A stretch of 36,736 bases of DNA, taken from Rhizobacter sp. Lineage in GTDB: Bacteria > Pseudomonadota > Gammaproteobacteria > Burkholderiales > Burkholderiaceae_C. Below the pieces are notes generated by a model, which made no database searches, had not been told where the DNA came from, and saw nothing but the letters and a program-made list of their open reading frames with translations. Shown piece after piece: positions 8,236 through 25,837 of this stretch. Every line of letters begins with the position of its first letter. The stretch's first letter is position 1. The DNA lies in assembly GCA_021732645.1 (NCBI GenBank), contig JAKFUQ010000043.1, positions 1 through 36,736 of the forward strand, written 5' to 3'. The position numbers and the translations under genes were made by a program.

Positions 8236-8688
8236 ATGCAAATCATCCTGCTGGAAAAAGTGGCGAACCTGGGCGACCTCGGTGATGTCGTCAACGTCAA
8301 GGCCGGCTATGCCCGTAACTTCTTGATCCCGACCCGGTCCGCACGCCGTGCGACCGCGAGCGCGATCAAGGAATTCGAGGTCAAGCGCGCCGAACTCGAA
8401 AAAGCGGCTGCCGAGAAGCTGGCTGCGGCGCAAGCCCTGGGCGAGAAGATGAGCGGTCGCACCGTTCACATCACGCAAAAGGCCGGTGTCGACGGCCGTC
8501 TGTTCGGCTCCGTCACCAACAACGACATCGCCGAAGCGCTGACGCGCATCGACTTCAAGGTGGTCAAGTCGCAGGTTCGCCTGCCGAATGGCCCGCTGAA
8601 GGTTGTCGGCGAGCATCTGGTGTCGGTGTCGCCGCACACCGATGTCGTGGTCGAGGTCAAGGTCGTGGTGGTGGGCGAAGCCGCCTGA
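8236..8688 (+). CDS. rplI: 50S ribosomal protein L9
   Basis: [32 protein letters not shown] is the canonical L9 N-terminus. 150 aa. Confidence 0.95.
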
Positions 8689-8732: not shown

Positions 8733-8786
8733 AAACCGCTGCTACCGAGCCTGCATCAGGTTCGGTAGCAGCGGTTTTTTGTTTTG
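8733..8786 (+). terminator. Rho-independent terminator of the rpsF-rplI operon
   Basis: Perfect 16-bp stem AAACCGCTGCTACCGA (8733-8748) / TCGGTAGCAGCGGTTT (8762-8777), followed by TTTTTTGTTTTG. An extra 8-bp hairpin GCGCGGCG/CGCCGCGC lies at 8707-8727. The terminator sits between convergent rplI and the LAL regulator. Confidence 0.85.
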
Positions 8787-8913
8787 TCCGAACGTCAACG
8801 TTGCTTCTCACCGCGAGAAGGTGCCTGTCGAACGATTTTGAGTGGCGACGCCTTTCTGGCTGGCCACGCCGCTGCCGACACGGATTGGCACGCCCTTGAA
8901 TTTCAGGTGCTTG

Positions 8914-11736
8914 TCAGTGCAACACGCCGTCGCGCCGTGCTGCGAGCACGGCGTTGACTCGGCCCGTCACACCGAGCTTGCTGTAGATCGACTTCAGGTA
9001 CCACTTGACCGTGTCGACACCGATGCCCAGTGCGCGCGCAATTTCCTTGTTCGATAGCCCGCGCGCCAGCAGTTGCAGCACGTCAGCTTCGCGGCGCTTT
9101 AGCGCGTTGACGTTGGCGGTACCGGTGTCGGCCACGGCGATAAGGCTGCCTGAAACGCTGCGGGCTGGCCCGTCGGTCTCAGGGCCCGGCCCGGCCAACT
9201 CGGCCAGCTTGACCAGCGAGGCACCCCATGGCGCGCGCAGCATCTGGTTGGTCGACACACGCGTGTGCACCAGGCTCGTGAGCTCGATGAAGCGCTCGCC
9301 TTCGTCGAGAAAGCTGCGGCACACGCCGATCCCGATCCCGACGCGTAGCGCCCCTGCAGCCATCTCGAGCGCCTGGTCGAGCCGTCCGATGCCGTCTAGC
9401 GCGAGCGCCATGAGGATACGCACCCGGATTTCGAGCCACAGCCCCCGCCGCTCGATGGCGCTGTTCAACACCGGCTGCAGTACCTGTTCCGCCTTCGCCG
9501 CCTGGCCCTGTGCCATCAAAACGCGGCTGTGGGCCAGCGCAACGCACTCCCAGCCCCGAGGCGGTGTGGCGCCTCGTGTGATGGACGGCGTGCTGTCTAG
9601 GGACAGCTCGTCCTGAGCCTGCGTCAGCCAGCGCTGTGCGGCATCGAGGTCGCCTTGTCCGAGCGCGTGGCGTATGCGCTCGCCGAGCACGGCGGCCCGT
9701 AGCCGGGCAAAGCCGAGGTGCTTGACGGTGCGCTCGCCCTCGTCGAGCACATCGCGAGCGGCGTCGGTGTTGCCACGCTGCACCAGCAACCGGCTCGATC
9801 CCACATAGGTCGCAATGAAGAAATCGGCGACGCCGCCTTCCACGCCCAGCGCACGGCTGTCCTCTAGCAGGCGACCGGCCTCGTCGAGCTCGTTCATCTC
9901 GACCAGCAATTCGCCCAGCAGCGCCTCGGCCAAGCGTGCGGCATGCGACTGCCGCCCGATACCGGTGACGGCCAGTTCGTGCGCGCTGCGGAAGTGTCCG
10001 GTGGCCTCGGTGAATCGCCCCAGTTCACGCGCTGCAATGCCCGCGAAGCAACGCCCGTAGACGCCACTGAATGGCCCTTCGGTGCGCTCGTGGAATGGCT
10101 TGGCAAGCACCTGCAGTGTGATCGCTTCCTCGTACGCATGCCGCTGCAGCAGGACATAGGTGTACACGTTGGAGGCGACGGACACGAGCCATGGTCGGTA
10201 GCTGGCGTCCGGCGCGATACATGCGCGCACCAAGTCCTCGACGCCGTCGACCTCGTCGCTGTAGATATTCATGCAGGCTTCCACCACGCGCGCTTCGGCC
10301 AGCGCCTCGATCACGTCGTCGGTGTCGTCCGTTGTCGCCCCGCCGGCGAGGCGGCGCTGTAGTTCCGAGACGGCCAGGGTCAGTGAGCCGCGCGCCTGCG
10401 CGGCTCGGTGCGTCAGGCATTGCGCCCAGGCAATCGCCAGTTGCAGTGCCGGCCGGTCCCGCAGTTTCTCGGGCGGCAGTCGCTGCACCAACACGCGCAG
10501 CGTGCTCATCGCGCTTTGCTGCACCAGCCACATCGCATCGCGCTCCACCAGTTCGATGGCGCGCTCGGTGTCACCGGCTGCCAGCGCATGGCTGACGGCC
10601 TCGTCGAGGTGCGCGTGGGCGCTGAACCAAGCCGAGGCCGCGCGGTGCAATTCGGCCTTGCGGCACGGCGACTGGCGTTCAAGCCGACGCTGCAGATGGG
10701 CCGCGAAGAGGTGGTGATAGCGGTACCACTCACGGTGTTCGTCGAGCGGCTGGATGAACAGGTCCAGTTTGTCCAGCCGCTCCAGCATCGCCTGGCTGTC
10801 GTCTCGGCCGCTGACGGCTCCGCACAGGCCCGCACACAGGCGATCCAGGATCGAGGTGTCCAGCAGAAACGCCAAAACGTCGACAGGGAGCAGGTCGAGA
10901 ACGTTCTCGGCCAAGTATTCACCCAGCGCATGGTGGTCTCCACCGAAGGTCGCCGCGACGCCGTCGAGCAGGTGTCCGTAGGGCCGATCTGCCGAACCCA
11001 GGTCGTCGGCCGCGTTGCGCAACGACAGCGAGGCCAGCTGTAATGCCGCCACCCATCCCTCGGTGCTGGACCACAGCAATTCGACGGTGGCGGCGTCCAG
11101 CGGCAGGGCGTTGACGTCGCACAGAAAGGCGTGCGACTCGTCGACTGTGAAGCGCAAGTCCGAGGCGCCGATCTCGCACAGCTCGCCTGCCACGCGCAGA
11201 CGTGCCAGCGGCAGGTTCGGTCGCTCGCGGCTCATGATGACGATGTGAAAGCGAGGCGGCGCGAATTCCAGCAGTGACTTCACGGTGTCATGCACTTGCC
11301 GATCGACGATCAGATGCCAGTCGTCCATGACGAGATAGAAGTCGCGTTGCGCATGCTCGAACGCGTTGACCAGTTCGGTCACGACGATGGACGCCGCATG
11401 CTCGGGCCTGGCCTCGAATTGCGCCACCACATCCAACGCCAGGGTGGAGTCGCCCACGCGCACCGCCTCGACCAAGTAGGTGAGGAAGCGGTCGAGCGCG
11501 TTGTCTTCGCTCGACAGGCTGAGCCAAGCGACCGCGGCGCCGGCGGCTTGCAGGCGCTCACGCCACTGCACCGAGAGCGTCGTCTTGCCAAAGCCGGCCG
11601 GACCATGGATCAGCGTCAGGCGGCGATGCCGCTGGGCGTCCAACCGTGCCAGCAGCCGATCGCGCGCCACGAGCGCGCTGTCTCCGGAGGGTGCACGGAA
11701 CTTGGTCGCGATCAGGCGCGGCCGGTCGGCTCGCAT
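8914..11736 (-). CDS. MalT/LAL-family STAND ATPase transcriptional regulator with C-terminal LuxR-type HTH
   Basis: N-terminus LIATKFRAPS...RLTLIHGPAGFGKTTL (Walker A) and DFYLVMDDWH (Walker B). A long helical/TPR-like middle region. C-terminal LuxR HTH LKRREADVLQLLARGLSNKEIARALGIGVDTVKWYLKSIYSKLGV. The start is ambiguous (ATG at 11736, 11811 or 11889); 11736 best matches MalT-type N-termini. Confidence 0.85.
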   Translation of the reverse strand: MRADRPRLIATKFRAPSGDSALVARDRLLARLDAQRHRRLTLIHGPAGFGKTTLSVQWRERLQAAGAAVAWLSLSSEDNALDRFLTYLVEAVRVGDSTLALDVVAQFEARPEHAASIVVTELVNAFEHAQRDFYLVMDDWHLIVDRQVHDTVKSLLEFAPPRFHIVIMSRERPNLPLARLRVAGELCEIGASDLRFTVDESHAFLCDVNALPLDAATVELLWSSTEGWVAALQLASLSLRNAADDLGSADRPYGHLLDGVAATFGGDHHALGEYLAENVLDLLPVDVLAFLLDTSILDRLCAGLCGAVSGRDDSQAMLERLDKLDLFIQPLDEHREWYRYHHLFAAHLQRRLERQSPCRKAELHRAASAWFSAHAHLDEAVSHALAAGDTERAIELVERDAMWLVQQSAMSTLRVLVQRLPPEKLRDRPALQLAIAWAQCLTHRAAQARGSLTLAVSELQRRLAGGATTDDTDDVIEALAEARVVEACMNIYSDEVDGVEDLVRACIAPDASYRPWLVSVASNVYTYVLLQRHAYEEAITLQVLAKPFHERTEGPFSGVYGRCFAGIAARELGRFTEATGHFRSAHELAVTGIGRQSHAARLAEALLGELLVEMNELDEAGRLLEDSRALGVEGGVADFFIATYVGSSRLLVQRGNTDAARDVLDEGERTVKHLGFARLRAAVLGERIRHALGQGDLDAAQRWLTQAQDELSLDSTPSITRGATPPRGWECVALAHSRVLMAQGQAAKAEQVLQPVLNSAIERRGLWLEIRVRILMALALDGIGRLDQALEMAAGALRVGIGIGVCRSFLDEGERFIELTSLVHTRVSTNQMLRAPWGASLVKLAELAGPGPETDGPARSVSGSLIAVADTGTANVNALKRREADVLQLLARGLSNKEIARALGIGVDTVKWYLKSIYSKLGVTGRVNAVLAARRDGVLH

Positions 11737-12199
11737 CGCGTTGCGGGTCACGCTACGGCGTTCCTTGTCGAGGCGGTTGTCGTGCTTGAGCTGGAGATTT
11801 TCGCGTTCCATTCGCGCAGTGTCGTCTTTAGCACCTTGCCGTAGTTGATTTTCGGCAGGGCTTCGCTGCGCGGTGGAGCAGCTGCGCACCGGACTTCAAC
11901 AAGCCCACGGCGTGCGCAACGCGGCAGCGTCGATGAGCCGAATCACCGGCATGCCCGGCTACCGGTGACGCTGGGCCAGAAATCCCGGGGTAAACCAGCG
12001 CGGGTTTCCCCATCTACCCGCTGCTTCCACCCCTATGTTGTAGTGCTTGCTACCCGTCTGGGAGGTGATCCCGCGGCGCTGTGTCCCTACGCTTGCCTAC
12101 GTGCATCGTCCAGCCTGAATGCACTCAGTCATGAGCTGGCAGGGCGGAAGGCATGTGACGGCAGAGATGGCCTGTCACTCATCAACCTGGGAATCATTC

Positions 12200-14137
12200 A
12201 TGGGCCTACAGATCAACATCGACAACGGCGGAACGCTGACAGACATCTGCATCATCGGTGGTCCGCAGGTCCAGAAAACCAAGGTGCTGACCACGCCTTA
12301 CGACCTCAGCAAGTGCTTCTTCGAGGGCCTGGAGAAGGCCTCCGATGTGGTTTATGGCAAGCCCGATGTCGCTCGCTTGCTTGAAGAGGTGGACCTGATC
12401 CGCTACTCGACCACGCAGGGCACCAATGCCATCTGCGAGCGCAAGGGGCCGCGACTCGGGCTGATCCTCGACGCCAAAGGGGCGGCACTGGTTGGGCGGT
12501 TGGTCGAACACGACCCGGAGGTGTACTCGGCGCTGGTGGGTGACCGGGTGGTTTTTCTGGGCACCGACCTCGTCACGGGCGACACGGCGCAGCTGGAGGT
12601 GGTCAAAGCCATCAATCAGCTGACGGCTTCCGGCGCGAGCCGCATCGTGGTCAGTTTCGCAACGCCGGATTTCATCGCGGTCGAAGACGCGTTCCGCAAG
12701 GTGGCGCTGCGCAAATACCCGCGCCACTTGCTGGGCGCCGTGCCGATGCTCTACGGCAGCGACTTGAGCATCGACCGCGATCCGGTGCGTCGCACCTGGA
12801 CGGCGCTGATCAACTCTTTCCTCCATCCCGGCATGGAAGCGTTTCTGTACAACGCGGAAAACCGTCTGCGTCAGTACCGCACCAAGAACCCGTTGCTGAT
12901 CTTCCGCAATGACGGGGACGCCTCGCGCGTGGCCAAGACCATCGCGATCAAGACCTACAGCTCCGGCCCGCGCGGCGGTGTCGAAGGCGTCAAGGCGTTC
13001 TCCAGGGTTTACGGCTACACCGATGTCGTCGGGATCGACGTCGGTGGCACCACCACCGACGTGTGCCAGTACGTAGCCGGTGGCGTGGCCGAAGTGCGCC
13101 ACGGGCATGTCGAGGGCATCAGCGTGTCGTTGCCGCTGTGCGAGATCGTCAGCGTCGGGGCCGGTGGCAGCTCGATCATCAAGGTGGTCGGCGGCAAGAT
13201 CGTCATCGGCCCGGAAAGCGTTGGCGCCGTGCCCGGCCCGGCCTGCTTCGGGCGCGGTGGCCAGTTCGCCACCATCACCGATGCGAGCCTGTTGCTGGGG
13301 CTGTTCGATCCGAAGTCGTATTTCGGCGGCGGCATGGGTCTCGACCTCGACCGCGCCGCGACGGCGATTGCGGTCAACGTGGCCGAACCGCTCGGGCTGA
13401 AGCTGGAAGAGGCCTTGCAGCAGATGGAGCTGGCGTTCGAGGCGAAGGTCGCTGCCGAATTGCAGCGTGCCACCAAGATCTCCAAGGACAGCGTGCTGCT
13501 GGCATTCGGCGGTGCTGGGCCGCTCAACGCCTGCGGTGTGGCCGAGGTGGCCGGCATCACCCAGGTGGCGGTGCCGCAGATGGCGGCTGTTTTCAGCGCC
13601 TACGGCATCGGCAGCTGCGACATCTCGCAGCGCTACACCGAATCGCTGACCCGCAACGACCAGAGCGGGCTCGACGCTGCGCTGGCAGCGCTGCAGGCCA
13701 AGGCCGGCCGCGACATGTATGCCGAGGGATTCGACAAGGGCCAGTACGAGATCGAAGCCCGGCTGGTGGCCACCGACGCCACAGGCACTGAAACCAGCCA
13801 CCCGTTGAACGGCACGCCGACTTTCCCGGCGGGCATCGCGGCGGCGGCCACGGTCGAGCTGGAACTGGCCGCCATCAAGCGTCTGCGGGCAGACACGGGT
13901 GTGACCGCACGGGTCACTGTGGGTGCAGCGGCGACAGCGGTCGGTGTGCGTAACGTCCTGGCGCGCGGCCGCGGGCGCATCGATGTGCCGGTCTATCGGC
14001 TCGCCGCGTTGAAACCGGGCGACCACGCGGTGGGCCCGGCCATCGTTGAAGAAGACTATTTCACCTGCCGCGTGCTCGAAGGCTGGACCTTCGTCATCAG
14101 CGACGCTGGCGACATCCTGTTGAACAGAAAGGCTTGA
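12200..14137 (+). CDS. Hydantoinase A/oxoprolinase-family ATPase subunit (carboxylase alpha-prime-like paralog)
   Basis: 645 aa. ASKHA-type phosphate motifs NIDNGGTLTD and GIDVGGTTTDV show the HyuA/AcxA family architecture. The start is an internal ATG at 12200 of track ORF 12119..14137. Confidence 0.85.
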   Translation: MGLQINIDNGGTLTDICIIGGPQVQKTKVLTTPYDLSKCFFEGLEKASDVVYGKPDVARLLEEVDLIRYSTTQGTNAICERKGPRLGLILDAKGAALVGRLVEHDPEVYSALVGDRVVFLGTDLVTGDTAQLEVVKAINQLTASGASRIVVSFATPDFIAVEDAFRKVALRKYPRHLLGAVPMLYGSDLSIDRDPVRRTWTALINSFLHPGMEAFLYNAENRLRQYRTKNPLLIFRNDGDASRVAKTIAIKTYSSGPRGGVEGVKAFSRVYGYTDVVGIDVGGTTTDVCQYVAGGVAEVRHGHVEGISVSLPLCEIVSVGAGGSSIIKVVGGKIVIGPESVGAVPGPACFGRGGQFATITDASLLLGLFDPKSYFGGGMGLDLDRAATAIAVNVAEPLGLKLEEALQQMELAFEAKVAAELQRATKISKDSVLLAFGGAGPLNACGVAEVAGITQVAVPQMAAVFSAYGIGSCDISQRYTESLTRNDQSGLDAALAALQAKAGRDMYAEGFDKGQYEIEARLVATDATGTETSHPLNGTPTFPAGIAAAATVELELAAIKRLRADTGVTARVTVGAAATAVGVRNVLARGRGRIDVPVYRLAALKPGDHAVGPAIVEEDYFTCRVLEGWTFVISDAGDILLNRKA

Positions 14138-14142
14138 AGACC

Positions 14143-14544
14143 ATGAAGGTTCTGATGACGGAATACCTGCGCGTCGATCTCGATGCGGAGCAATGGGAAT
14201 GCCGGGTCTGCGACCACGTGATCGGCATGGCCACCAAGAGCTACAAGGAAGGCATGCTGGTCTACGACCGCGACCCGCGCGAAATCCACCCACCGATCAT
14301 CGACCCGGAGCGCTACAAGTTCACCTTCAGCCCCGACCCGGAATGGGTGCGCATCCTCGAGTACTACTGCCCGAGCTGCGGCACACAGGTCGAGACCGAG
14401 TACGCGATCCCGGGGCACCCGCCGCTGTACGACATGCAGCCCGACCTGCCCGCACTGCGTGCGCAGTGGGCCAAGCGTGAAGAGCTGAAAGAAGGCGTGG
14501 TCGGACCGGCGGTGACCTCCGGCTCAGGCGGCCACTCACACTGA
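14143..14544 (+). CDS. Acetone/acetophenone carboxylase gamma-subunit-like zinc-ribbon protein
   Basis: 133 aa. CRVCDHV...YYCPSCGTQVE (two CxxC pairs) and conserved EYLRVDLD...YKFTFSPDPEWVRILEYYCP, typical of AcxC-like subunits. GAAAGG lies 11 nt upstream of ATG 14143. Confidence 0.8.
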   Translation: MKVLMTEYLRVDLDAEQWECRVCDHVIGMATKSYKEGMLVYDRDPREIHPPIIDPERYKFTFSPDPEWVRILEYYCPSCGTQVETEYAIPGHPPLYDMQPDLPALRAQWAKREELKEGVVGPAVTSGSGGHSH

Positions 14545-14627
14545 CCGATCCACTGCGGGGTGGCGCTGTCGGCGCCGGTCCCCGCGGTCCGATCGAGCAC
14601 CAGCCGCCATCCAGGCAAGGAGAAAAA

Positions 14628-16763
14628 ATGCGACGCATATCCGTAGACATCGGCGGCACCTTCACCGACTGCTTTGTGGTCTGGGACGGCCAGTACATCG
14701 AAGCCAAGGCGCTCACCACCCACCACAACCTGGCGCTCGGTTTCAATGAGGCGCTCGAAAAAGCCAACAAGGTGCTGGGCCTCGAACTCGAAACCATCCT
14801 GTCCGAGGTCGACTCGGTGCGCTATGCGACCACGCTGGGCACCAACGCGCTGATCGAGCACAAGGGGCCGAAGATCGGCATGCTGGTCACCGCAGGCTTC
14901 GAGGCCACGGTGCCGCTGAGCCGTGCGCGCGGCTACGGTGATGGCCTGGACTCGCTGGCCCAGCAGGACATGCCCAATGCGCAGCGCCCAGCGCCGCTGG
15001 TGGCTGCGCACATGATCTATGGCGTGCGCGAACGCATGGATTTCGAGGGCAAGCTGGTGATGCCGCTGGACGAAGAGGACGTGCGCCGGCAGATCCGTTC
15101 GCTGGTGAACCGCGGCGCGCAGATCATCGTCGTGGCGCTGGTCAACAGCGTGGTCAACCCGTCGCACGAGCAGCGCATCGAGGAGATCCTGTTCGAGGAA
15201 TACCCGTCGCATTTGCTGGGCGCTATTCCCGTCATCCTGTCCCACCAGGTGGCCGGTCGCAAGGGCGAGTACGTGCGCGCCACCTCGGCGGTCGTCGACG
15301 GCTACCTGCACTCGACGATGTACCACGCGCTGTCGGCACTCGAGCAGAACCTGCGGGCGCACAAGTACAACAAGCCGATGCTGGTGATCCACAACTCCGG
15401 CGGCATGGCGCAGCTGAATTCCACCGACGCGCTGCAGACCATCCACTCGGGCCCGGTGTCGGGCATCGCGGCGTCTGAACACCTGGCAATGCAGGCCGAT
15501 CTGGGCAATGTGGTCGCCACCGACATGGGCGGCACCAGCTACGACATCGGCATCGTCGTCGAAGGGGGCGTCAAGCACTACGACTTCAACCCGGTGATCG
15601 ACCGCTGGCTGGTCTCAGTGCCGATGGTGCACCTGGTGACCTTGGGCGCTGGCGGCGGCTCGATCGCCGCCTACGACCGGATGTACCACACGGTGAAATG
15701 CGGGCCGCAAAGTGCGGCCTCCGATCCGGGCCCGGCCTGCTACGACCGCGGCGGCATGAACCCGACGGTGACCGATGCCGACCTGGTCCTCGGCTACCTA
15801 GACGCCAAAAACTACGCCGGCGGTTCGATCCCGCTGAACACGCGCCGTGCGATCGCCGCGATTGAAGACACGTTGTGCGACGACCTGGATTGCTCGGTCA
15901 TCGAAGCGGCGCTGGCAATTCGCGAGAAGGTCGACGACAACATGGCCAATGGCCTGTTCACCGAACTGCGCGCGCGCGGTTACGACCCGAAAGCGTTCAC
16001 GATGCTGGCCTACGGCGGCAACGGCCCGCTGCACTGCTGCGGCATCGCGCGCAACCTCGGCATCGACAAGATACTGGCGCCGCCACTGAGCTCGGTGTTC
16101 TCGGCGGTCGGGGCCGGCAACATGCACCAGCTGCACATCCACGAGCAGTCGCTGTACATGGTGATGTACGACTCGAACACGCGGCACGTCTTCGACGACT
16201 ACCCGCGCTTCAACAGCATCGTGGCCGAGTTGAAGGAACTGGGGACGCAGGATTTGCTGCGCCAAGGCATCGAGCGCAGCCAGATCCAGTACAGCCTCGA
16301 ACTCGACATGCGCTACGGCAACCAGCTGGTGACGACCACGGCGGTGATTCCGCAGCACGAGGTGCACGGCGTGGCCGATGTGCTGGCGATCATTTCGCAG
16401 TTCTCGAACGATTACGGCAAGCGCTTCGGCGAAGGCAGCCAGGCGCCCGAAGCCGGCATCCGGATCAACACCATCCGCGTGGCGGCCTTCGTGCGGCACG
16501 AGACGGTGACCTTCGAAGACATCAAGCCGGTGGCCGCCGAGTTGCGCAAGGGGCCTCCGAAACCGGAGACCGTGCGCCAATGCCATTTCGTAGGCCATGA
16601 AGGCGCCATCGAAACGCCGGTGTGGAACCGCTCTGCCATAGCCCCTGGCGTGCAGATTTCCGGGCCGGCGATCATCGCCTCGGAAGTGACGACCTTCCTG
16701 GTCGATCCCGGATGGACCTTCGTGGCGGCGCGCCAAGGCGCGTCATGGTTCCTGCGCGGCTGA
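14628..16763 (+). CDS. Hydantoinase A/acetone carboxylase beta-like ATPase subunit (second HyuA paralog)
   Basis: 711 aa. MRRISVDIGGTFTDCF and VVATDMGGTSYDIGIV motifs. Strong SD AAGGAGAAAAA before the ATG. Confidence 0.88.
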   Translation: MRRISVDIGGTFTDCFVVWDGQYIEAKALTTHHNLALGFNEALEKANKVLGLELETILSEVDSVRYATTLGTNALIEHKGPKIGMLVTAGFEATVPLSRARGYGDGLDSLAQQDMPNAQRPAPLVAAHMIYGVRERMDFEGKLVMPLDEEDVRRQIRSLVNRGAQIIVVALVNSVVNPSHEQRIEEILFEEYPSHLLGAIPVILSHQVAGRKGEYVRATSAVVDGYLHSTMYHALSALEQNLRAHKYNKPMLVIHNSGGMAQLNSTDALQTIHSGPVSGIAASEHLAMQADLGNVVATDMGGTSYDIGIVVEGGVKHYDFNPVIDRWLVSVPMVHLVTLGAGGGSIAAYDRMYHTVKCGPQSAASDPGPACYDRGGMNPTVTDADLVLGYLDAKNYAGGSIPLNTRRAIAAIEDTLCDDLDCSVIEAALAIREKVDDNMANGLFTELRARGYDPKAFTMLAYGGNGPLHCCGIARNLGIDKILAPPLSSVFSAVGAGNMHQLHIHEQSLYMVMYDSNTRHVFDDYPRFNSIVAELKELGTQDLLRQGIERSQIQYSLELDMRYGNQLVTTTAVIPQHEVHGVADVLAIISQFSNDYGKRFGEGSQAPEAGIRINTIRVAAFVRHETVTFEDIKPVAAELRKGPPKPETVRQCHFVGHEGAIETPVWNRSAIAPGVQISGPAIIASEVTTFLVDPGWTFVAARQGASWFLRG

Positions 16764-16807
16764 GCGCGCATCGGAACGTTACGACCACCACCAATGAAGA
16801 GGTTGAA

Positions 16808-19084
16808 ATGAGCGAAACCGTCAAGTCCTATGCGCCCAAGGTGCCCAGCGCGGAAGAGATCGCGCTGATCAAGAAATTCTTGAACGACACCACCCTGTTT
16901 CTCGGGCCCGACCCCGAGATCATGACCAACCATGACCTGATGCCGCGCAGTGCGACCGAAGACGCCGCCATCGCGAAGGTCAGCGACGCGCGCACCATCG
17001 CCAAGATCCGCGACCGCATCCAGGCCGGCTGCGACGAGGGTTTCGAGATGGTCGAGCAGATGGGCGCAGCGCCTGGTGCCAAGTGGGGCGACCTGATCAC
17101 CGGCGTCTACTCGGCCGCGGGCGACCTGGCCATCGCCAGCTCTGGCGGTGTGCTGGTGTTCTCGGCGCTGGTGCACCACCCGATCAAGTTCATCATCAAG
17201 AACTGGGTCAACGACCCGACGGTGGGTGTGCGCGAGGGCGACGGCTTCATCCACAACGACTCGCGCTACGGGAACATCCACAACACCGATCAAAGCATGA
17301 TCGTGCCGATGTTCCACCAGGGCAAGATCATCTGCTGGGTGGCCTGCACGGTGCACGAGGGCGAGAACGGGGCGATCGAGCCGGGCGGCATGCCGTCGAT
17401 GGCGGAGAGCCCGTCAGACGAAGGCCTGAAGATGTGCCCGTTCCGTGTCGTCGAGAACTACCAGATCAAGCGTGACATCCTGACCTTTCTGCAGAACTCG
17501 GTGCGCGAACCGAAGCTGCAGTACGAGGACATGAAGGTCAAGCTGTTCGCCTGCTTGCGCATCAAGCAGCGCATCGAGGAAACCATCCGCACCGACGGCC
17601 CCGAGTCGCTGATCTCGACGCTGCGGCTGTCGATGGAAAACGTGCGCACCGAGGTCAAGCGCCGCATCAGCGAGTGGCCCGACATGACGGTGCGCACCTA
17701 CATCATCCAGGACTCGACCTTGCGCGAGAACTGCGTGGTGAAGATCAACTGCCAGCTCACCAAGACCGGTGATCGGTTGATCTTCGACTTCCGCGGCTCC
17801 AGCCCTGAATTCACGAATCGCGCCACCAACACCATCCTCGCCGGCCTCAAGGGGATGCTGTCGCAGGTGTTCCTGAATTATGTCTGGCCCGATCTGCCAC
17901 GCAGCCAGGCGACCTTTGCGCCGATCGAGGTCGTCACCGACCCGCATTCAATCGTCAACAGCTCGTACGACGCACCGAACTCGCAAAGCTTGATGTCGAT
18001 CTTCACCGGCTTCACTGCTGGCCAGCATGCGGTAGCGAAGTTCCTCTACAGCTGCCCCGAAAAGTACACGAAGGTTCACGCACCGACCTTCAACATGATC
18101 AACACCTTCATCTGGGGTGGCGTCAGCCAGCACGGCGAAATTCTTGGCAACCTGTGCGCAGACCTGAACGGCATGGGCGGCGGTGCGCGCTCCGACATGG
18201 ACGGCGAACACGCGCTGGCACCGATCTTTGCCAACATGGCTGACATCGGCGAGCAAGAGATCAACGAAGAAGACGTGCCGTTCTTGCAGCTCGTGTCCAA
18301 GAAGATGACGATGGACGCCATTGCCCCGGGCAAATACCGCGGCGGGCAGGGCTACACGATGATTGTGGCTACCAAGGACAGCGAACAGTGGGGCTTCATG
18401 ACCACGACACAAGGCGCCAAGATTCCACCCATCCAAGGTCTGTTCGGCGGCTACGCCTGCGGGACGTATCCACTCTCGAAGGTGAAGGGCGTCGACGTCT
18501 ACAAGGTGTTGCTGGATCAGCCTGATCGTTTCAAGCACTCTATCGCCGAGATCATGAACGAGCGGCCGTTCGAGAGCGGGACCTACACCACTCACCACAT
18601 GGGCATGGGCTTCGAGATCTCGAAGCGCGGCGAGCTGTTCATGATTTCGCAAGGCGCGGGCGCCGGCTATGGCGACCTGCTGGAGCGCGACCCGGCGGCG
18701 GTGGTGCGTGACATCGAGGAGGGCCTGATGTCGCAAGGCGTGGCCGCGCGCCTGTACAAGGTGCAGTTCGATCCGGTCACGCTGGCCATCGACCATGAGG
18801 CCACCAGCGCCTTGCGCGCCGGCGAACGCAAGGCCCGCATCGCGCGGGGTGTGCCGTTCAAGGACTTCGTCAAGACCTGGAACAAGCCGAAGCCGCCGTC
18901 GCTGTTCCAGTTCTTCGGTTGCTGGGGCGACGATATCGGCACGCTGTACCTGGGCAGCCCGGACATCACGCGCGATGCCAACAAGCCGAAGCCGAACTAC
19001 ATGCGCCACCCGAAAGACGTGCGCATCGAGGAACTGGAAGCACGGCTCGCTGCGCTGGGGGCCTTGAAAGAAGAGAAGCAGTGA
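16808..19084 (+). CDS. Hydantoinase B/acetone carboxylase alpha-like catalytic subunit
   Basis: 758 aa. The HyuB/AcxB-like core includes GDGFIHNDSRYGNIHNTDQ...VHEGENG (putative metal-site region) and PGKYRGGQGY. ATG 16808 follows GAAGAGG. The track ORF starts earlier, at 16622. Confidence 0.88.
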   Translation: MSETVKSYAPKVPSAEEIALIKKFLNDTTLFLGPDPEIMTNHDLMPRSATEDAAIAKVSDARTIAKIRDRIQAGCDEGFEMVEQMGAAPGAKWGDLITGVYSAAGDLAIASSGGVLVFSALVHHPIKFIIKNWVNDPTVGVREGDGFIHNDSRYGNIHNTDQSMIVPMFHQGKIICWVACTVHEGENGAIEPGGMPSMAESPSDEGLKMCPFRVVENYQIKRDILTFLQNSVREPKLQYEDMKVKLFACLRIKQRIEETIRTDGPESLISTLRLSMENVRTEVKRRISEWPDMTVRTYIIQDSTLRENCVVKINCQLTKTGDRLIFDFRGSSPEFTNRATNTILAGLKGMLSQVFLNYVWPDLPRSQATFAPIEVVTDPHSIVNSSYDAPNSQSLMSIFTGFTAGQHAVAKFLYSCPEKYTKVHAPTFNMINTFIWGGVSQHGEILGNLCADLNGMGGGARSDMDGEHALAPIFANMADIGEQEINEEDVPFLQLVSKKMTMDAIAPGKYRGGQGYTMIVATKDSEQWGFMTTTQGAKIPPIQGLFGGYACGTYPLSKVKGVDVYKVLLDQPDRFKHSIAEIMNERPFESGTYTTHHMGMGFEISKRGELFMISQGAGAGYGDLLERDPAAVVRDIEEGLMSQGVAARLYKVQFDPVTLAIDHEATSALRAGERKARIARGVPFKDFVKTWNKPKPPSLFQFFGCWGDDIGTLYLGSPDITRDANKPKPNYMRHPKDVRIEELEARLAALGALKEEKQ

Positions 19085-19953
19085 GCGGACCGTTCGTTGA
19101 ACGCCTGCCCGATGCGGCGGGCAAGGGGTCCATTCGCGTCTGGCTCAAATCATCGGCGTACACCCGGCGCCTGCTGTTGGGCGAGGCCGGTGACCCGTGG
19201 GTTTCCGGCGCGCACTACCTGGCTTATTTCTCTCAAGCCCATGGGCTGCTCAGACCCGACGTGGCGGTGCTGGAAGTGGGGGATCTGTACGACTCGTGGA
19301 ATGCCGCGCACAGCGGCGAGTTGGCGGAGTCGCTCGGGAAGCGGCGCAAGCCCGCAACGGCGCTGCGCAAGCTGCTCGAAGCCGAGGCGCCACGCAAGGT
19401 GCTGGCAGAAGTGGTCGAAGCGGTGCTGGCCCATCTGCGTGGGCAGACGCCGCTGGTGTTGTCGATTCCGTCGCCGCGGCGCTGGATGAACCACGCGAAC
19501 CAGTTGACCGGCAGCACCGATATCGAACTGACCTCTGACGACGCCGAAGACGCGGCGATGTACCTGGCCGATTTGATGCGCAGCGTGTCTGCCTTTTCTG
19601 TGTCGGGCGTGCTGCTGGAAGAAGCGCGCGACGCGGCGAACTTCCATGTCGAAGACCTGACGCGCTACACCTCGATCGTCAATGTCGTGCGCCACTACCG
19701 CTGGTCACTCGCCCTGCGCCTGCCGAACGACGCTGTGCCGGTACCCGAGGCTTTGGTGGATTTCGATGCGGTGATCTCGCCTGTGATCGAGTCGGCCGGC
19801 GCCGCAGCACTGGGCCGCGACATCAGTGCGGCATTCGCCACCGACGCCGCCATCGCGCCGCTCAGTGGTCGCCAGTTCTACTTCGCCGAGATCGACCCCG
19901 GCCTGCGTCCGGAGTCGGTGCTCGAGGCGGTGGCCCGGTTGCGCGGTGGCTGA
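19081..19953 (+). CDS. Hypothetical protein, translationally coupled to the HyuB-like gene (possible epsilon-type accessory subunit)
   Basis: GTG 19081 overlaps the upstream stop (GTGA). The 290-aa product is cysteine-free, and I recognise no family motif. It is in-frame within track ORF 18919..19953. Codon usage resembles its neighbours. Confidence 0.55.
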   Translation: MSGPFVERLPDAAGKGSIRVWLKSSAYTRRLLLGEAGDPWVSGAHYLAYFSQAHGLLRPDVAVLEVGDLYDSWNAAHSGELAESLGKRRKPATALRKLLEAEAPRKVLAEVVEAVLAHLRGQTPLVLSIPSPRRWMNHANQLTGSTDIELTSDDAEDAAMYLADLMRSVSAFSVSGVLLEEARDAANFHVEDLTRYTSIVNVVRHYRWSLALRLPNDAVPVPEALVDFDAVISPVIESAGAAALGRDISAAFATDAAIAPLSGRQFYFAEIDPGLRPESVLEAVARLRGG

Positions 19954-19969
19954 TCCGGCACGGGCGCCG

Positions 19970-21283
19970 GTGGACCGGATCCCGGTCAACCTGCTCACCG
20001 GCTTTCTGGGTTCGGGCAAGACCACGCTGCTGAACCACTGGGTTCACCTGCCGGCGATGGCCGGCGTGGCGGTGCTGGTCAACGAATTCGGCGAGGTCGG
20101 CATCGACCACCATCTGGTCGACACCATCGACGAGCAGACGGTGCTGCTCGATTCCGGTTGCCTGTGCTGTGCGATGCAGGGCGATCTGATCGGCGCGCTG
20201 AAGAACCTGGCGCTGCGCGCTTCGCGACGCGAGATTGCGCCCGTCACCCGCGTCATCATCGAAACCACCGGTCTGGCCGATCCGGTGCCGGTGCTCTACA
20301 CCTTGATGGAGGACAGCTTCGTTGCAGCGCGCTATGCCTGCGACGGTGTTGCGACGGTGGTGTCTGCCACCCATGGGCTGGAGCAACTCCGCGACTTTTC
20401 CGAAGCGACGCGGCAAGTGGTTGCAGCCGACCTGCTGTTCATCACCAAGTGCGATCGCGCCACGCCTTCGATGCTGGCGGCACTGCAAGAAGCGTTGAAC
20501 CAGCTCAATCCCGGAGCGCCGCAGCGGCAGGTCCGCGACGGAAAGGACGATGCGACGGCATTGCTTTCGTGCGGGCTCTACAGCTCGGCGAACAAGCTGC
20601 CGAGCCTGGCGCAATGGCTGGGTGAGGAAGCGCTTCATCAGGCGGCTGCACAGGATCGCGACGGAGCGAAGCCTGGGTGGCTTGCCGTCTCTGAGTCGTC
20701 CGGTGTTGCTGGTGAAGGTGGCGACTCGTCCGGTCGTCCGTTGGCCGAACGCTGGCGTGAGCGGCGCGATGCCCAGGTGGTTGAAACCGCTCGCTCGGTG
20801 GCGCCGCACACAGCCGGTGTCAACAGCTTCGTGATCACGTTCGATCAGCCGGTGCCCTGGTTCGGATTCGCGGTCGCACTCGGGAAAATCCTGTCTCAGC
20901 ATGGCAAGCAGTTGTTGCGCATCAAAGGTCTGATCAATGTGGCGGGAACGGTGCAACCGCAGGTCATCCAGTGCGTTCAAGGCGTCGCCTATCCGTCAGT
21001 GACGCTGCCGGCATGGCCTGCAGAAGGCCCGTTTCGTGATGGCTGCAGCCGGCTGGTCTTCATCGCTCGTGGCCTTGACGAGGCGCAGGTGGTGGCGATC
21101 CGCACGGCGCTGGCCCGGTTGCCCGTTGACGCCATCGCGCTGCGGATGAGTGCTGGCGACTCGATGCTGCCTACCCGCTGCTGGCTGGCGCAGCGTATGC
21201 CCGTGACCACCCCGAACGCCATCGAACACGACGGCTGGTTCGTTCAAGCCAAACGCTTTCGCGGGCGCAACTCGTCGTCTTGA
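19970..21283 (+). CDS. COG0523/CobW-family G3E GTPase (putative metallochaperone)
   Basis: NLLTGFLGSGKTTLLN (Walker A), metal-binding GCLCC (CxCC), ETTGLADP, and a CobW C-terminal-like domain (NSFVITFDQPVPW...LLRIKGLINV). GTG 19970 is the first in-frame start after the upstream stop at 19953. Confidence 0.85.
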   Translation: MDRIPVNLLTGFLGSGKTTLLNHWVHLPAMAGVAVLVNEFGEVGIDHHLVDTIDEQTVLLDSGCLCCAMQGDLIGALKNLALRASRREIAPVTRVIIETTGLADPVPVLYTLMEDSFVAARYACDGVATVVSATHGLEQLRDFSEATRQVVAADLLFITKCDRATPSMLAALQEALNQLNPGAPQRQVRDGKDDATALLSCGLYSSANKLPSLAQWLGEEALHQAAAQDRDGAKPGWLAVSESSGVAGEGGDSSGRPLAERWRERRDAQVVETARSVAPHTAGVNSFVITFDQPVPWFGFAVALGKILSQHGKQLLRIKGLINVAGTVQPQVIQCVQGVAYPSVTLPAWPAEGPFRDGCSRLVFIARGLDEAQVVAIRTALARLPVDAIALRMSAGDSMLPTRCWLAQRMPVTTPNAIEHDGWFVQAKRFRGRNSSS

Positions 21284-21368: not shown

Positions 21369-22325
21369 ATGCCCGTTCAATGGTTCCCGGGTCACATGAA
21401 TGCGACCAAGAAGGCCATCATCGAGCGCGTCAAGGCGATCGACGTGGTGATCGAGATGCTCGACGCCCGGCTGCCCGGGTCGAGCGGCAACCCGCTGCTG
21501 GCCGAGCTGACGCGTGGCAAGCCGGCGCTGAAGGTGCTCAACAAGCAGGATCTGGCCGATCCACAGCGAACCTCACTGTGGATCGAGCACTTCAATGCGC
21601 AATCAGCCACTCAGGCGGTGGCGCTCGACGGCCGGGCCGGCGCGCCGGTGCACCGCGCAGTCGACGCCTGCCGCCAACTGGCGCCACTGCGTGGCGGCAT
21701 GGTCAAGCCACTGCGCGTACTGATCTGCGGCATTCCGAATGTGGGCAAGTCGACGGTGATCAACTCACTGGCTGGTCGTGTTGCCGCCAAGACCGGCGAC
21801 GAGCCCGGCATCACCAAGCTCGAGCAAAAGATCGTCATCGCGAATGATTTTTACCTGTACGACACACCGGGCATGCTGTGGCCGCGCATCGTGGTCGAAC
21901 AAGGTGGGTACCACCTCGCTGCCAGCGGTGCCGTCGGTCGCAATGCGTATGACGATGAGGAGGTGGCGCTGGTGTTGCTGGCCGCGCTGCATCGCGACTA
22001 TCCCGGCCTGGTCGAGCAGCGTTTTCGGCTCGATGCGACGCTGGCCTGCACCGACGATGAGCGGCTGGTTGCCATCGGCCGCCAGCGCGGTGCGGTGCTG
22101 CCGGGTGGGCACGTCAGCCTGCAGAAAGCCGCCGAGATCGTGCTGCACGACTTCCGCTCGGGCAGCCTGGGACGCATCACTCTGGAGACGCCGCACGATT
22201 GGCAGCGCTGGCAGGCCGAGGCGGCGGTGAAAGAGGCTGAGCGTGCAGCCCAGCGAGAGGCCAGGTCAAAGACCGGTTCCCGGTCCCGGGCCAGGTCTGC
22301 GTCGACTCAGACCAACGGTCAGTGA
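21369..22325 (+). CDS. rbgA: Ribosome biogenesis GTPase A (YlqF/RbgA)
   Basis: MPVQWFPGHMNATKK with circularly permuted G motifs: NKQD (G4), GIPNVGKST (G1) and DTPG (G3). Confidence 0.9.
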   Translation: MPVQWFPGHMNATKKAIIERVKAIDVVIEMLDARLPGSSGNPLLAELTRGKPALKVLNKQDLADPQRTSLWIEHFNAQSATQAVALDGRAGAPVHRAVDACRQLAPLRGGMVKPLRVLICGIPNVGKSTVINSLAGRVAAKTGDEPGITKLEQKIVIANDFYLYDTPGMLWPRIVVEQGGYHLAASGAVGRNAYDDEEVALVLLAALHRDYPGLVEQRFRLDATLACTDDERLVAIGRQRGAVLPGGHVSLQKAAEIVLHDFRSGSLGRITLETPHDWQRWQAEAAVKEAERAAQREARSKTGSRSRARSASTQTNGQ

Positions 22326-22807
22326 TGAGCGCTGGCGCCCGAGATCCAGCGCGATCCCGGTTTCAGTGAGCTCTCCACAGCGTCTTCCCGTTCCGCGCGC
22401 AGCGTGTCCAGCACCCGGGGCAGGTCACCTTGCAGGCGGTCCAGTGACAGCGGCTTCAACCAGTACTCGCGAGCTCCCAGGCTCATCGCCTTCACGATGT
22501 CGATCGTCAGCGTGTCACCCGTCAGCAGGATCACTTGGCAGTTGCCCTCGGCGATGTATCGATTCAGCGCGCGCACCACCTCCAGGCCGCTGATGTCGGG
22601 AAGGTGCATGTCCAGCAGGATCACATCGGGCATCGTGTCGAGCGCCGAGCGGATGCCCGAGCGGCCGTCGGCTGCCAAGCGCAGATCCACCGTGGGGAAC
22701 GCTGCCAGCAGAGCTTCGACCAGTTCCCGGCTGACAGGATCGTCCTCGATGCAGAGCACGGAGCCTCGAACGTCGCACCGTGGCGCGTTGTTTGCGTTCA
22801 TGTCCAT
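22319..22807 (-). CDS. Stand-alone response regulator (receiver domain only)
   Basis: 162 aa. CheY-like motifs SVLCIEDDP, DVILLDMHLPDISG, and LTGD...KPL. No output domain. Its 3' end overlaps the ylqF 3' end by 7 nt (convergent). Confidence 0.85.
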   Translation of the reverse strand: MDMNANNAPRCDVRGSVLCIEDDPVSRELVEALLAAFPTVDLRLAADGRSGIRSALDTMPDVILLDMHLPDISGLEVVRALNRYIAEGNCQVILLTGDTLTIDIVKAMSLGAREYWLKPLSLDRLQGDLPRVLDTLRAEREDAVESSLKPGSRWISGASAHH

Positions 22808-23069
22808 GGCGTGTGGCCCTCGGTCGACTGAAGCGGAGCAGGAGTTTTCAATGGTTGATGGTCGTCGTGTACTGCGCGCAACGTTATCGGTAGTTCCCCT
22901 TGATCCGGGGTTGACAAGCGAAAAAGTACTCGGTCAAAAAATCAGCCTACCGAACTCGCCGCTGCCGTGCCTGGGTGATGGCCACCGATGGATCTGGTCT
23001 ACTATTTACGTGCATCTGCGGTCGACGTGCCGTCAGCCGGGGGGCGGTCAATCACAAGGAGATGTGGCG

Positions 23070-24362
23070 ATGGCTGAACACTTGACTCGTCGCCAGCTTT
23101 TGGGCAGCGCAGCCACCGGCGTGGCGAGTGCGGCGCTGCCGTTCACGCCGACTGGCAACGCGCTCGCTGCTGGCGCGCCCATTGTGCTGGGCGTGCCCAC
23201 GTCGCAAACGGCAGCGGCCGGCGTTGCCGACGACCTGGATCACCTCAACGGCACCACCCTTGCGATGGAAGAAATCAATGCCGCAGGGGGGATCCTCGGT
23301 CGGCCATTGAAGCTGTTTGTGACCGACGTTGACAAGTTGTCGCCCGAAAGTTGCCAGCAGGCGATCGCCGCCGGTGTCGACGCCAAAGTGCATGCGATCT
23401 CGAATGCGTTCCTGTTCGTGCCGATTCCGGCCATGGACGCGTCGGCGAAGTACAAGGCGCCCTACCTGCAAGGCAACACCCAGCGCGCCGCTACCGAAGC
23501 CTTCAAGGCGAACTCGGCAAAGTACAGTCATATTTTCCAGACCGACCCGTCGGAGGTGCACTACGGCTACACCTATCCGCTGTGGCTGCAGGCGATGGAA
23601 GACTCGGGCAAGTGGAAGCCGAAAAACCGCAAGGTGCACATCGTGCAGGAGCAGGTGGCGTACTGCCAGACCATCTCGAAGGCTGCGCAGGCGGCGTTGA
23701 AAAAGAGCAAATTCCAGCTGGCAGCGGTGACCGACATCCAGTTTCCAGTGCAGGACTGGGGGCCGGTGATCCGCAAATTGAAGGAGGTCGATGCCGGCGC
23801 GATCATGATCGATCACTGGGTCGCCGCGGAGTACGCCGCCTTCTGCAAGCAGTTCCGTGCCAATCCGGTGAAGGACTCGCTCGTTTACCTGCAGTACGGT
23901 CCGTCGCAGCCCGAGTTCCTGACGCTGGCCGGTGACGCTGCCAACGGCTTTTGCTGGAGTACGGTGCTGGGTGTCTATGCCGACAGCCGCGGCAACGCAT
24001 TTCGTGCCAAGTACAAGAAGCGCTTCCCTGGCGTGATGGGTCTGGTGTACACCGGTAACGGCTACGACATCGCCTACTACCTGAAGGCGGCGTGGGAGGC
24101 GACGAAGGACCCGAATAACTTCAAAGCGGTGTGCGACTGGATTCGCGCCAATCCGTACCGTGGCGTGTGCGGACTGATGGACATGCGCAACCCGTGGCAG
24201 GAAGCGGCTCACTTCCCGGACAACGGCTACGACGTTACCGCCAAGGAACTTGAGAAAGGCATGAGTCAGCTCTACGTTCAGGTGCAGAACCGGGAGCACA
24301 GGATCATCTATCCGTACGAGTTGAAGGAATCGGGACTGGTCAAGGCACCCTGGTGGAGTTGA
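23070..24362 (+). CDS. Liv/AmiC-type (cluster-4-like) ABC substrate-binding protein with twin-arginine signal
   Basis: ATG 23070 follows AAGGAG. The N-terminus MAEHLTRRQLLGSAATGVASAALPF...NALA is Tat-like. The mature part (PIVLGVPTSQTAAAG...INAAGGILGRPLKL) is typical of LivK/amide-urea binding proteins. The track ORF 22404.. is an artefactual 5' extension. Confidence 0.85.
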   Translation: MAEHLTRRQLLGSAATGVASAALPFTPTGNALAAGAPIVLGVPTSQTAAAGVADDLDHLNGTTLAMEEINAAGGILGRPLKLFVTDVDKLSPESCQQAIAAGVDAKVHAISNAFLFVPIPAMDASAKYKAPYLQGNTQRAATEAFKANSAKYSHIFQTDPSEVHYGYTYPLWLQAMEDSGKWKPKNRKVHIVQEQVAYCQTISKAAQAALKKSKFQLAAVTDIQFPVQDWGPVIRKLKEVDAGAIMIDHWVAAEYAAFCKQFRANPVKDSLVYLQYGPSQPEFLTLAGDAANGFCWSTVLGVYADSRGNAFRAKYKKRFPGVMGLVYTGNGYDIAYYLKAAWEATKDPNNFKAVCDWIRANPYRGVCGLMDMRNPWQEAAHFPDNGYDVTAKELEKGMSQLYVQVQNREHRIIYPYELKESGLVKAPWWS

Positions 24363-24366
24363 GCCG

Positions 24367-25825: not shown

Positions 25826-25837
25826 ATCCCCGCGCCC

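Follow-up and report, generated by a model that had tools for sequence, protein, structure and literature searches.

The 36,736-nucleotide contig JAKFUQ010000043.1 of Rhizobacter sp. (Burkholderiales; GenBank assembly GCA_021732645.1), referred to here in its full length as the window, carries at positions 12200-21283 of its forward strand a single six-gene operon whose best explanation is that it encodes an ATP-dependent, biotin-independent carboxylase of the acetophenone carboxylase (Apc) type, ApcABCDE, together with a COG0523 GTPase that probably loads its metal. The operon belongs to a deep and widespread sister lineage of the true Apc enzymes, none of whose members we found to be characterised, and is distinct from acetophenone carboxylase proper. 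By analogy with Apc, and from the genes that accompany orthologous operons in other genomes, the function that we favour, at a probability of roughly 0.55, is the carboxylation of short aliphatic ketones by a five-subunit enzyme that would have two ATP sites and need the COG0523 GTPase.

All six genes lie on the plus strand. The first, g1 (12200-14137, 645 residues, ATG start), encodes an ApcA-like HyuA paralogue, the predicted alpha' subunit, in whose translation both ASKHA phosphate motifs can be read (NIDNGGTLTD and GIDVGGTTTD). It is followed by g2 (14143-14544, 133 residues), encoding an ApcB-like gamma subunit with the CxxC pairs C20/C23 and C76/C79, all four cysteines of which are invariant in alignment A1; by g3 (14628-16763, 711 residues), encoding an ApcC-like, HyuA-type alpha subunit with the ASKHA motifs VDIGGTFTD and ATDMGGTSYD; by g4 (16808-19084, 758 residues), encoding an ApcD-like HyuB protein, the predicted core and dimerisation subunit beta; and by g5 (19081-19953, 290 residues, GTG start), encoding a highly divergent ApcE homologue as the putative epsilon subunit. 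The start codon of g5 overlaps the stop codon of g4 in the GTGA at 19081-19084, an arrangement suggestive of translational coupling, and this 4-nucleotide overlap is retained in nearly all loci of the window type (group C, defined below). The sixth gene (19970-21283, 437 residues), for the COG0523/CobW-type GTPase, has its GTG start at 19970, 16 nucleotides past the g5 stop, and no terminator-like site of any strength was found within 12200-21283. An earlier reading of this DNA, made from its letters and open reading frames (the sequence-only reading), had placed a five-gene operon at 12200-19953: the five open reading frames are all intact where it put them, and its four ASKHA strings and both CxxC pairs are found in the translations, but the operon does not end at 19953, since the GTPase gene starts so shortly afterwards. 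The window has a GC content of about 65%, at which long chance open reading frames are common. More than 20 unrelated genomes nonetheless show the same gene lengths, gene order and g4/g5 overlap, so that g1 to g5 can be taken as real genes rather than chance open reading frames of GC-rich DNA.

Pfam places g1 and g3 in Hydant_A_N and Hydantoinase_A (with Hydant_A_C), g4 in Hydantoinase_B (E 9.8e-72) and g2 in Acetone_carb_G (E 4.7e-38). The best PDB match of each of these four proteins is a chain of the Apc core structure 5L9W: ApcA for g1 (5l9w_b, E 2.6e-86), ApcB for g2 (5l9w_C, E 4.8e-31, against 1.4e-8 for AcxC of acetone carboxylase), ApcC for g3 (5l9w_B, E 3e-159, against 1.7e-85 for AcxB and about 1e-80 for hydrolases of the family) and ApcD for g4 (5l9w_A, E 6.1e-83, against 7.6e-38 for AcxA and 4e-22 and 3e-18 for hydrolases). 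In bit scores, alpha reaches 535 against Apc, 291 against acetone carboxylase (Acx) and 275 and 270 against hydrolases; the values for beta are 282 (ApcD), 133, and 81 and 68, and gamma scores 111 against Apc and 38 against Acx. The best NCBIfam models for g1 to g4 are ApcA, ApcB, ApcC and ApcD, an order identical to that of the genes, with scores that miss all four equivalog cut-offs widely (333 of 1250, 124 of 250, 585 of 1500 and 322 of 1500, respectively). The placement of beta and gamma was judged by scores only, and that of alpha and alpha' also by the tree described below.

Weidenweber et al. 2017 (PMC5214803) defined the Apc branch by the gene order apcABCD(E), that is, alpha', gamma, alpha, beta and epsilon, by a short Cys4 gamma subunit, and by an R/KERiDsxG fingerprint that is present in alpha and not in alpha'. 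The authors described the branch as very diverse, with one characterised member and with epsilon as its most divergent and not always present subunit, noted the existence of 'Apc-like' clusters in general, and reported that the hydrolases of the family consist of two subunits only and have no gamma, alpha' or epsilon. All three defining features are found in the window operon, where the fingerprint reads RERMDFEG at residues 134-141 of g3 and does not occur in g1. The five subunits and their gene order are the same as in ApcABCDE of Aromatoleum aromaticum EbN1 (5L9W for the core, 9FOU for ApcE; NF042960, NF042974-NF042977), with which the window operon further has in common two HyuA paralogues with ASKHA motifs, a fingerprint in alpha only, a Cys4 gamma subunit of about 130 residues and the same predicted epsilon fold. 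The two systems differ in that identities reach only about 30-39% in alpha', alpha and beta and some 48% in gamma, the epsilon relationship is invisible to BLAST and HMMER (17% identity in the structural alignment), beta has 758 residues in the window and 684 in Apc, and regulators and pathway neighbours are not the same. Apc carboxylates acetophenone at the cost of 2 ATP, hydrolysed to 2 ADP, and requires epsilon.

The other two branches of the superfamily resemble the window operon less. Acetone carboxylase AcxABC (Xanthobacter autotrophicus and Aromatoleum aromaticum; 5SVB, 5M45) likewise carries out ATP-dependent, biotin-free ketone carboxylation, but has three subunits, one ATP site (ATP to AMP), a single HyuA-type subunit and neither alpha' nor epsilon; its gamma subunit has 168 residues, and the window gamma aligns only to AcxC residues 103-158. 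The hydrolases (HyuAB, OplAB, caprolactamase CapAB and N-methylhydantoinase; 6YRA, 7HK5) share Hydantoinase_A/B domains and ASKHA ATP binding with the window proteins, to which they show the lowest similarity of the three branches, and are built as two subunits or one fused chain. The His-Asp-His triad of g4 (H158, D161, H183) aligns to H150, D153 and H175 of AcxA, which we take to be the Mn/Fe-binding site in the acetone carboxylase structure 5SVB. As a means of telling Acx from Apc this triad had to be rejected: it is invariant in all three locus groups defined below and is also present in ApcD, so that it cannot decide between the families.

Related loci were collected by a genome scan seeded with the gamma subunit, which returned 80 loci, Aromatoleum itself not being among them. 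These were sorted by similarity to the window into groups whose boundaries are score-based: group A, the true Apc-like loci (n=38, gamma 63-90% identical to ApcB); group B, intermediate (n=22); and group C, of the window type (n=23). Loci with a gamma subunit 80-90% identical to ApcB, whose fifth open reading frames score 307-400 bits against the ApcE model, were used as stand-ins for true Apc. Median identities to the window proteins are, for group C and group A respectively, 72% and 32% for alpha', 77% and 48% for gamma, 87% and 39% for alpha, and 85% and 30% for beta; epsilon is 54% identical in group C and not alignable in group A. Across group C, g3 is 85-98% identical. Among Alpha-, Beta- and Gammaproteobacteria and Geobacter-type bacteria, alpha and beta stay 80-98% identical, and alpha' falls to about 67% and epsilon to about 45%. 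These identities imply a much tighter constraint on the catalytic core than on the two Apc-type-specific subunits.

In a neighbour-joining tree of alpha and alpha' (50 bootstrap replicates), to which ApcC, ApcA, AcxB, N-methylhydantoinase and caprolactamase were added as references transcribed by hand from PDB alignments, bootstrap values of 100% were obtained for group C, for groups B and C together, for group A with ApcC or ApcA, and for all alpha' sequences including ApcA; the split of Apc-type alpha and alpha' from Acx and the hydrolases reached 82%. According to this tree, the duplication that gave rise to alpha and alpha' is older than the split between true Apc and the window lineage, and the five-subunit design therefore predates that split as well. 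The phylogeny that the sequence-only reading had proposed as a check thus places the window proteins, for alpha and alpha', with the Apc type and apart from acetone carboxylase, N-methylhydantoinase and caprolactamase. Its central proposal, that the subunit inventory mirrors five-component acetophenone carboxylase rather than a three-subunit acetone carboxylase or a two-subunit hydrolase, draws support from the best matches, the fingerprint, the ApcE homology and the tree alike. The lineage comprises at least 328 clusters at 90% identity and has members in Alpha-, Beta- and Gammaproteobacteria and in Geobacter and its relatives, often on mobile elements, with more distant versions in Actinomycetota. 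Public annotation names its genes only as 'hydantoinase/oxoprolinase family', 'acetone carboxylase subunit gamma' or 'hypothetical protein', and our literature search found neither a paper on the lineage nor an assay of any of its enzymes.

The assignment of g5 called for methods other than sequence search. At permissive thresholds as well as standard ones, it had no match among Pfam, NCBIfam or PDB chains; the NCBIfam ApcE model (NF042977) did not match even at E<=1, and pairwise BLASTP against an ApcE homologue gave a non-significant E of 0.37. As a stand-in for ApcE we used the family of open reading frames that follow the beta genes of group A, which as a positive control score 307-400 bits against the NCBIfam ApcE cut-off of 450. 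Alignment of this family with the g5 family by hhalign gave a probability of 96.3% (E 1.7e-9, 224 collinear columns) with the group B intermediates included, and of 70.7% (E 3.8e-5) with the intermediates left out. An AlphaFold2 model of g5 (mean predicted local distance difference test score 93.2, predicted template-modelling (TM) score 0.92) folds as an alpha/beta barrel, whose top PDB match in Foldseek is 9FOU, the structure of ApcE (E 9.4e-8, TM 0.62/0.60, 17% identity). Next come structures of uroporphyrinogen decarboxylase (URO-D; E about 1e-5, TM 0.6-0.66) and then an MtaA-like methyltransferase; to the URO-D and MtaA-CmuA methyltransferase fold g5 is about 13-15% identical, and it is about 60 residues shorter. 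ApcE homologues themselves give faint matches to the URO-D and MtaA hidden Markov models. Fold and profile comparison together thus indicate that g5 is a remote but real homologue of ApcE with a predicted uroporphyrinogen-decarboxylase-like TIM barrel. What the two epsilon families share is limited to a (G/S)P after the third strand, a glutamate that ends the fourth strand (E181) and the Asn-Val pair N201-V202. Many further polar residues are invariant within the g5 family, which points to a functional pocket more than to a merely structural role; conserved residues of g5 include K23, S131-P132, E181, N201, H205-W208 and D247. Homologues of g5 are unnamed proteins of the same length; they form 328 clusters at 90% identity and 469 representatives at 50% identity, of which 351 have E<=1e-10.

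The product of the sixth gene matches Pfam cobW and CobW_C and has a GFLGSGKTT P-loop and a GCLCC metal motif in its translation; it scores below the NCBIfam equivalog cut-offs of YjiA, CobW and ZigA, and its subfamily is without assignment. In group C, 22 of the 23 loci have a CobW-type gene adjoining the cluster; in Acidovorax a gene for a ZupT-like metal transporter stands between the epsilon and cobW genes. The GTPase is likely to be a metallochaperone for the carboxylase with which it is co-transcribed. A CobW/COG0523 gene also comes immediately after the ApcE gene in bona fide Apc-like loci (L008:15443-16627, L013:15234-16652, L017:15502-16542 and other group A loci). Because of this shared position, the GTPase would be a conserved partner of the whole Apc branch and not just of the window lineage; in the literature examined we found no mention of a link between CobW proteins and Apc clusters.

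Where the sequence-only reading had left the substrate unknown, comparative context narrows it, if indirectly, to short aliphatic ketones. Flanking open reading frames of the 23 group C loci were clustered and named by Pfam and NCBIfam, the groups being assigned from the gamma score for all neighbour counts. Besides the GTPase, a sigma-54 activator with GAF and HTH_8 domains accompanies 17 of these loci (1 of 38 in group A, 2 of 22 in group B) and carries MimR_N wherever Pfam matches are on record. An SCPx-type thiolase is found at nine of the 23 and an AMP-forming ligase at eight, a Zn alcohol dehydrogenase at seven (group A 1/38, group B 0/22) and 3-oxoacid CoA-transferase A/B, both subunits above the TIGR02429/TIGR02428 cut-offs, at six (group A 0/38, group B 0/22). 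Less frequent neighbours are the beta-ketothiolase BktB in Acidovorax, above its equivalog cut-off, and a pyrroloquinoline quinone (PQQ) alcohol dehydrogenase with cytochrome c in Methylibium; the Xanthobacter locus has a Phenol_MetA_deg outer-membrane channel. The fullest set, on a plasmid of Neorhizobium petrolearium, comprises the five carboxylase genes, CoA-transferase A/B, the GTPase, the sigma-54 activator and an rpoN gene of its own. Group A loci have instead a PaaK-type ligase (19/38), a thiolase (12) and a PAS histidine kinase (10), which fits the apc-bal arrangement of Aromatoleum; the ligase and the histidine kinase are absent from the recurrent neighbours of window-type loci.

Catabolism of acetone and butanone runs from a secondary alcohol to the ketone, on to the beta-keto acid and the beta-ketoacyl-CoA, and then to thiolysis, all with C3-C5 compounds. 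Because orthologous operons adjoin genes for secondary-alcohol dehydrogenases, acetone-type sigma-54 activators, 3-oxoacid CoA-transferase and beta-ketothiolase, acetone, butanone and their close relatives are the most likely substrates. The context of AcxABC is similar, with its GAF/MimR_N sigma-54 activator, 3-oxoacid CoA-transferase, thiolase and secondary-alcohol dehydrogenase.

The residues proposed to form the acetophenone pocket of Apc-alpha are L81, F281, N282, P285, I333, Q344 and T345 (Weidenweber et al. 2017, PMC5214803). Their equivalents in g3 are T72, I272, H273, P276, I324, H335 and L336, so that five of the seven are replaced and two conserved. All 23 group C loci carry this T-I-H-P-I-H-L signature unchanged; it is almost invariant in group B and also present in Rhodococcus jostii RHA1 and Neorhizobium petrolearium. 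Most loci counted under group A have L/M, F/Y, N, P, I, Q and T at these positions; loci were grouped by beta score for this count, and the few group A loci that carry the window residues are mis-grouped ones with a truncated beta. Acetone carboxylase has an isoleucine at the position of I272, and does not have the two histidines.

By analogy with Apc (Weidenweber et al. 2017, PMC5214803), alpha (g3) would act as the ketone-activating kinase, phosphorylating the enol form of the ketone with ATP, and alpha' (g1) as the bicarbonate-activating kinase, converting bicarbonate to carboxyphosphate with a second ATP. Beta (g4), with its His-Asp-His site, would form the core dimer and gamma (g2) a Cys4 zinc ribbon, and the dissociable epsilon (g5) would bring the two activated partners together, upon which the beta-keto acid would be released. 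With acetone, butanone or close relatives as substrates, the products would be acetoacetate or 3-oxopentanoate.

Several points weigh against this assignment. It is one of guilt by association, made solely through gene neighbourhood in other genomes. Near the operon of the window, genes for a CoA-transferase, a thiolase, an alcohol dehydrogenase or a sigma-54 activator are missing, and the same holds for the neighbourhood of the operon in L062, L067 and L079, the three closest relatives. The AMP-forming ligase and SCPx-type thiolase, seen at eight to nine group C loci out of 23, would be compatible with bulkier keto acids too. The Apc pocket was assigned tentatively, without a substrate complex, and pocket residues of alpha' have changed as well (E248 to S, K281 to D). 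As to the lineage, monophyly of the Apc-type alpha alone is weak (28%), and the tree is a simple neighbour-joining one of few replicates with hand-transcribed references.

The main alternative, which we consider somewhat unlikely, is an Apc-type carboxylase whose substrate the neighbouring genes do not betray. That substrate could be a ketone (cyclic, branched or substituted aromatic), an aldehyde or some other weak C-H acid, and the aliphatic-ketone genes would then speak for only part of the lineage. The absence of ketone-pathway genes beside the operon in the window and its three closest relatives favours this reading, as do a window regulator of the MalT/LAL type and, in the relatives, an FNR-type box in place of a sigma-54 system (both described below); the ligase and thiolase just mentioned, together with the Xanthobacter channel, would suit larger hydrophobic substrates. 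On the other hand, alpha and beta are 83-98% identical and all seven pocket positions invariant across group C, which makes a change of substrate within the lineage unlikely, and those loci that do have pathway genes consistently indicate C3-C5 keto acids (3-oxoacid CoA-transferase, BktB).

That the operon encodes a true acetophenone (aryl methyl ketone) carboxylase, an orthologue remote from ApcABCDE of Aromatoleum whose pathway neighbours have been lost, seems to us improbable, even though it has the same five subunits in the same order, Apc proteins as best matches for four of them and an epsilon fold like that of ApcE. The wide shortfall from every NCBIfam equivalog cut-off with no ApcE match, the 30-39% identity of alpha', alpha and beta to true Apc-like loci, and the replacement of the aromatic F/Y281 and four other pocket residues all argue against it. 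So does the context: a PaaK-type ligase and a PAS histidine kinase do not recur near window-type loci, and the 3-oxoacid CoA-transferase occurs at none of the 38 true Apc-like ones. Nor does the window have a linked bal gene: as the sequence-only reading had stated, neither a phenylethanol dehydrogenase (1-phenylethanol dehydrogenase in Apc clusters) nor a benzoylacetate-CoA ligase gene was found in it. Because equivalog scores, pocket residues and pathway context all depart from those of Apc, the operon should not be filed as acetophenone carboxylase. Finally, a hydrolase of the ATP-dependent hydantoinase, oxoprolinase or caprolactamase type acting on a lactam or cyclic amide, perhaps linked to the ABC transporter and dimethylformamidase-like gene downstream, is highly improbable, for although Pfam puts g1, g3 and g4 in the hydantoinase A/B families and an amide-type transporter and amidase-like gene lie 3-10 kb downstream, the hydrolases are two-subunit enzymes lacking gamma, alpha' and epsilon (PMC5214803), are matched by alpha and beta with far lower scores than Apc, fall outside the Apc-type clade of the tree, and the transporter/amidase block is absent from L062 and L067, which retain the operon.

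The regulation of the operon differs between the window and its relatives. A gene for a MalT/LAL-type regulator (8914-11889, minus strand; 991 residues as the listed open reading frame), with AAA_16, TPR_MalT and LuxR/GerE helix-turn-helix matches in Pfam and NCBIfam, is divergent from the operon, from which it is separated by an intergenic region (11890-12199) that would hold the promoter or promoters and of which only the last 65 or so nucleotides before g1 are conserved with relatives (alignment A3). The sequence-only reading had opposed this protein to a sigma-54 AcxR-type activator. For the window the opposition stands, as no such activator is found there; the orthologous loci, by contrast, have an AcxR/MimR-type sigma-54 activator in 17 of 23 cases. 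The window is syntenic with three metagenome-assembled genomes of Burkholderiales, L079 (Rubrivivax sp., 87% nucleotide identity over the operon), L062 and L067, in all of which the operon directly follows rpsF-priB-rpsR-rplI. In the window a 3.4-kb segment (8786-12165) that contains the MalT-like gene lies between rplI (8236-8688) and g1, and this segment is absent from all three. We therefore rejected the MalT-like regulator as a trait of the family and regard it as a recent acquisition of the window's own lineage. Control of the operon appears to have been taken over by the inserted regulator, which is a candidate regulator in this lineage only. LAL-type regulators also adjoin two group B clusters (L050, L052), so that their recruitment would be a recurrent event.

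In the three closest relatives a perfect FNR/CRP-type palindrome, TTGATTTGGATCAA, lies about 130 nucleotides upstream of g1 (L005:2960-3010; about 7890-7940 in L067 and L079; columns of about 415-470 in alignment A3) and suggests low-oxygen control. This box is missing at the equivalent place in the window (12060-12110), having been lost with most of the upstream region. A sigma-54 -24/-12 promoter is found in four orthologous loci with sigma-54 activators, and a search upstream of g1 in the window gave no match to one; nor did the leader upstream of g1 yield a sigma-70 consensus match, convincing operator repeats or an Rfam family.

Downstream of the operon, 85 nucleotides after cobW, lies a gene for a GTPase of the YlqF/RbgA type (21369-22325, plus strand; TIGR03596, 286 bits against a cut-off of 208). 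The closest relatives (L005/L062, L067, L078 and L079) have it in this position too, without exception on the strand of cobW and at a distance of 85 nucleotides, and it is probably a housekeeping neighbour with a role in ribosome biogenesis. Further on, a block at 23100-30686 (plus strand) has been inserted between two minus-strand genes, one for a response regulator (22319-22807) and one for a Pyr_redox_2 protein (30714-31733); it encodes a Peripla_BP_6 binding protein, two ATP-binding cassette (ABC) ATPases, two BPD_transp_2 permeases and a 773-residue protein with DMFA2_C and Laminin_G_3 domains that resembles the large subunit of N,N-dimethylformamidase. The listed 652-residue open reading frame at 22404-24362 is probably over-extended, its binding-protein domain beginning at about residue 259. 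At least the first gene of the block is present in L079. A link between the operon and this block was considered and rejected, since L062 and L067 keep the operon without it; the block is hence not part of the module. Epsilon-like and dimethylformamidase-like genes were seen together in just one other place, a group B locus of a Candidatus Binataceae metagenome-assembled genome (L069:10878-13365). There the epsilon-like gene comes some 2.9 kb downstream of the beta gene, beside an opposite-strand dimethylformamidase-like open reading frame (score 471 against the window protein); this may be a coincidence.

The carboxylase module looks mobile. It adjoins a Tn3-family transposase in Azotobacter beijerinckii (L001:1-140) and type IV secretion and conjugation genes in Acidovorax (L002:15470-20876), and is carried, with its dedicated rpoN, by a 917-kb plasmid in Neorhizobium petrolearium (L087, NZ_CP123001.1). 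A distant version is found on plasmid pRHL2 of Rhodococcus jostii RHA1 (L086, NC_008270.1, RHA1_RS41495-41475), with alpha 63%, beta 54% and epsilon 29% identical to the window proteins.

To our knowledge, ATP-dependent acetone carboxylation has been attributed to the three-subunit AcxABC in every characterised case. Acetone use by Rhodopseudomonas gelatinosa, which we take to be the present Rubrivivax gelatinosus, depends on CO2. Siegel's 1950 paper on acetone metabolism in this organism is listed in PMC8084838. We put forward, tentatively and as a doubtful extension of the short-ketone assignment, that the lineage may be a second, structurally distinct solution to the carboxylation of acetone and other short ketones, used alongside AcxABC or in its place in many Proteobacteria and Actinobacteria: it would have five subunits and two ATP sites (2 ATP to 2 ADP), the C-C bond would form at epsilon or under its gating, metal loading would require a dedicated COG0523 GTPase, and the enzyme could underlie acetone assimilation in Rubrivivax-type phototrophs. 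What the present analysis adds beyond the 2017 account of the Apc branch is the definition of the lineage, its epsilon subunit, the CobW partner, the pocket signature and the aliphatic-ketone context. If small aliphatic ketones are indeed the substrates, gene-based acetone-turnover surveys built on acxABC-type genes alone would overlook this lineage, and ketone carboxylases with one and with two ATP sites could be compared mechanistically on a single substrate. It would then also become possible to test what epsilon and the CobW-type GTPase do, for which Xanthobacter autotrophicus DSM 431, Neorhizobium petrolearium and Rhodococcus jostii RHA1 with its plasmid pRHL2 are examples of tractable hosts.

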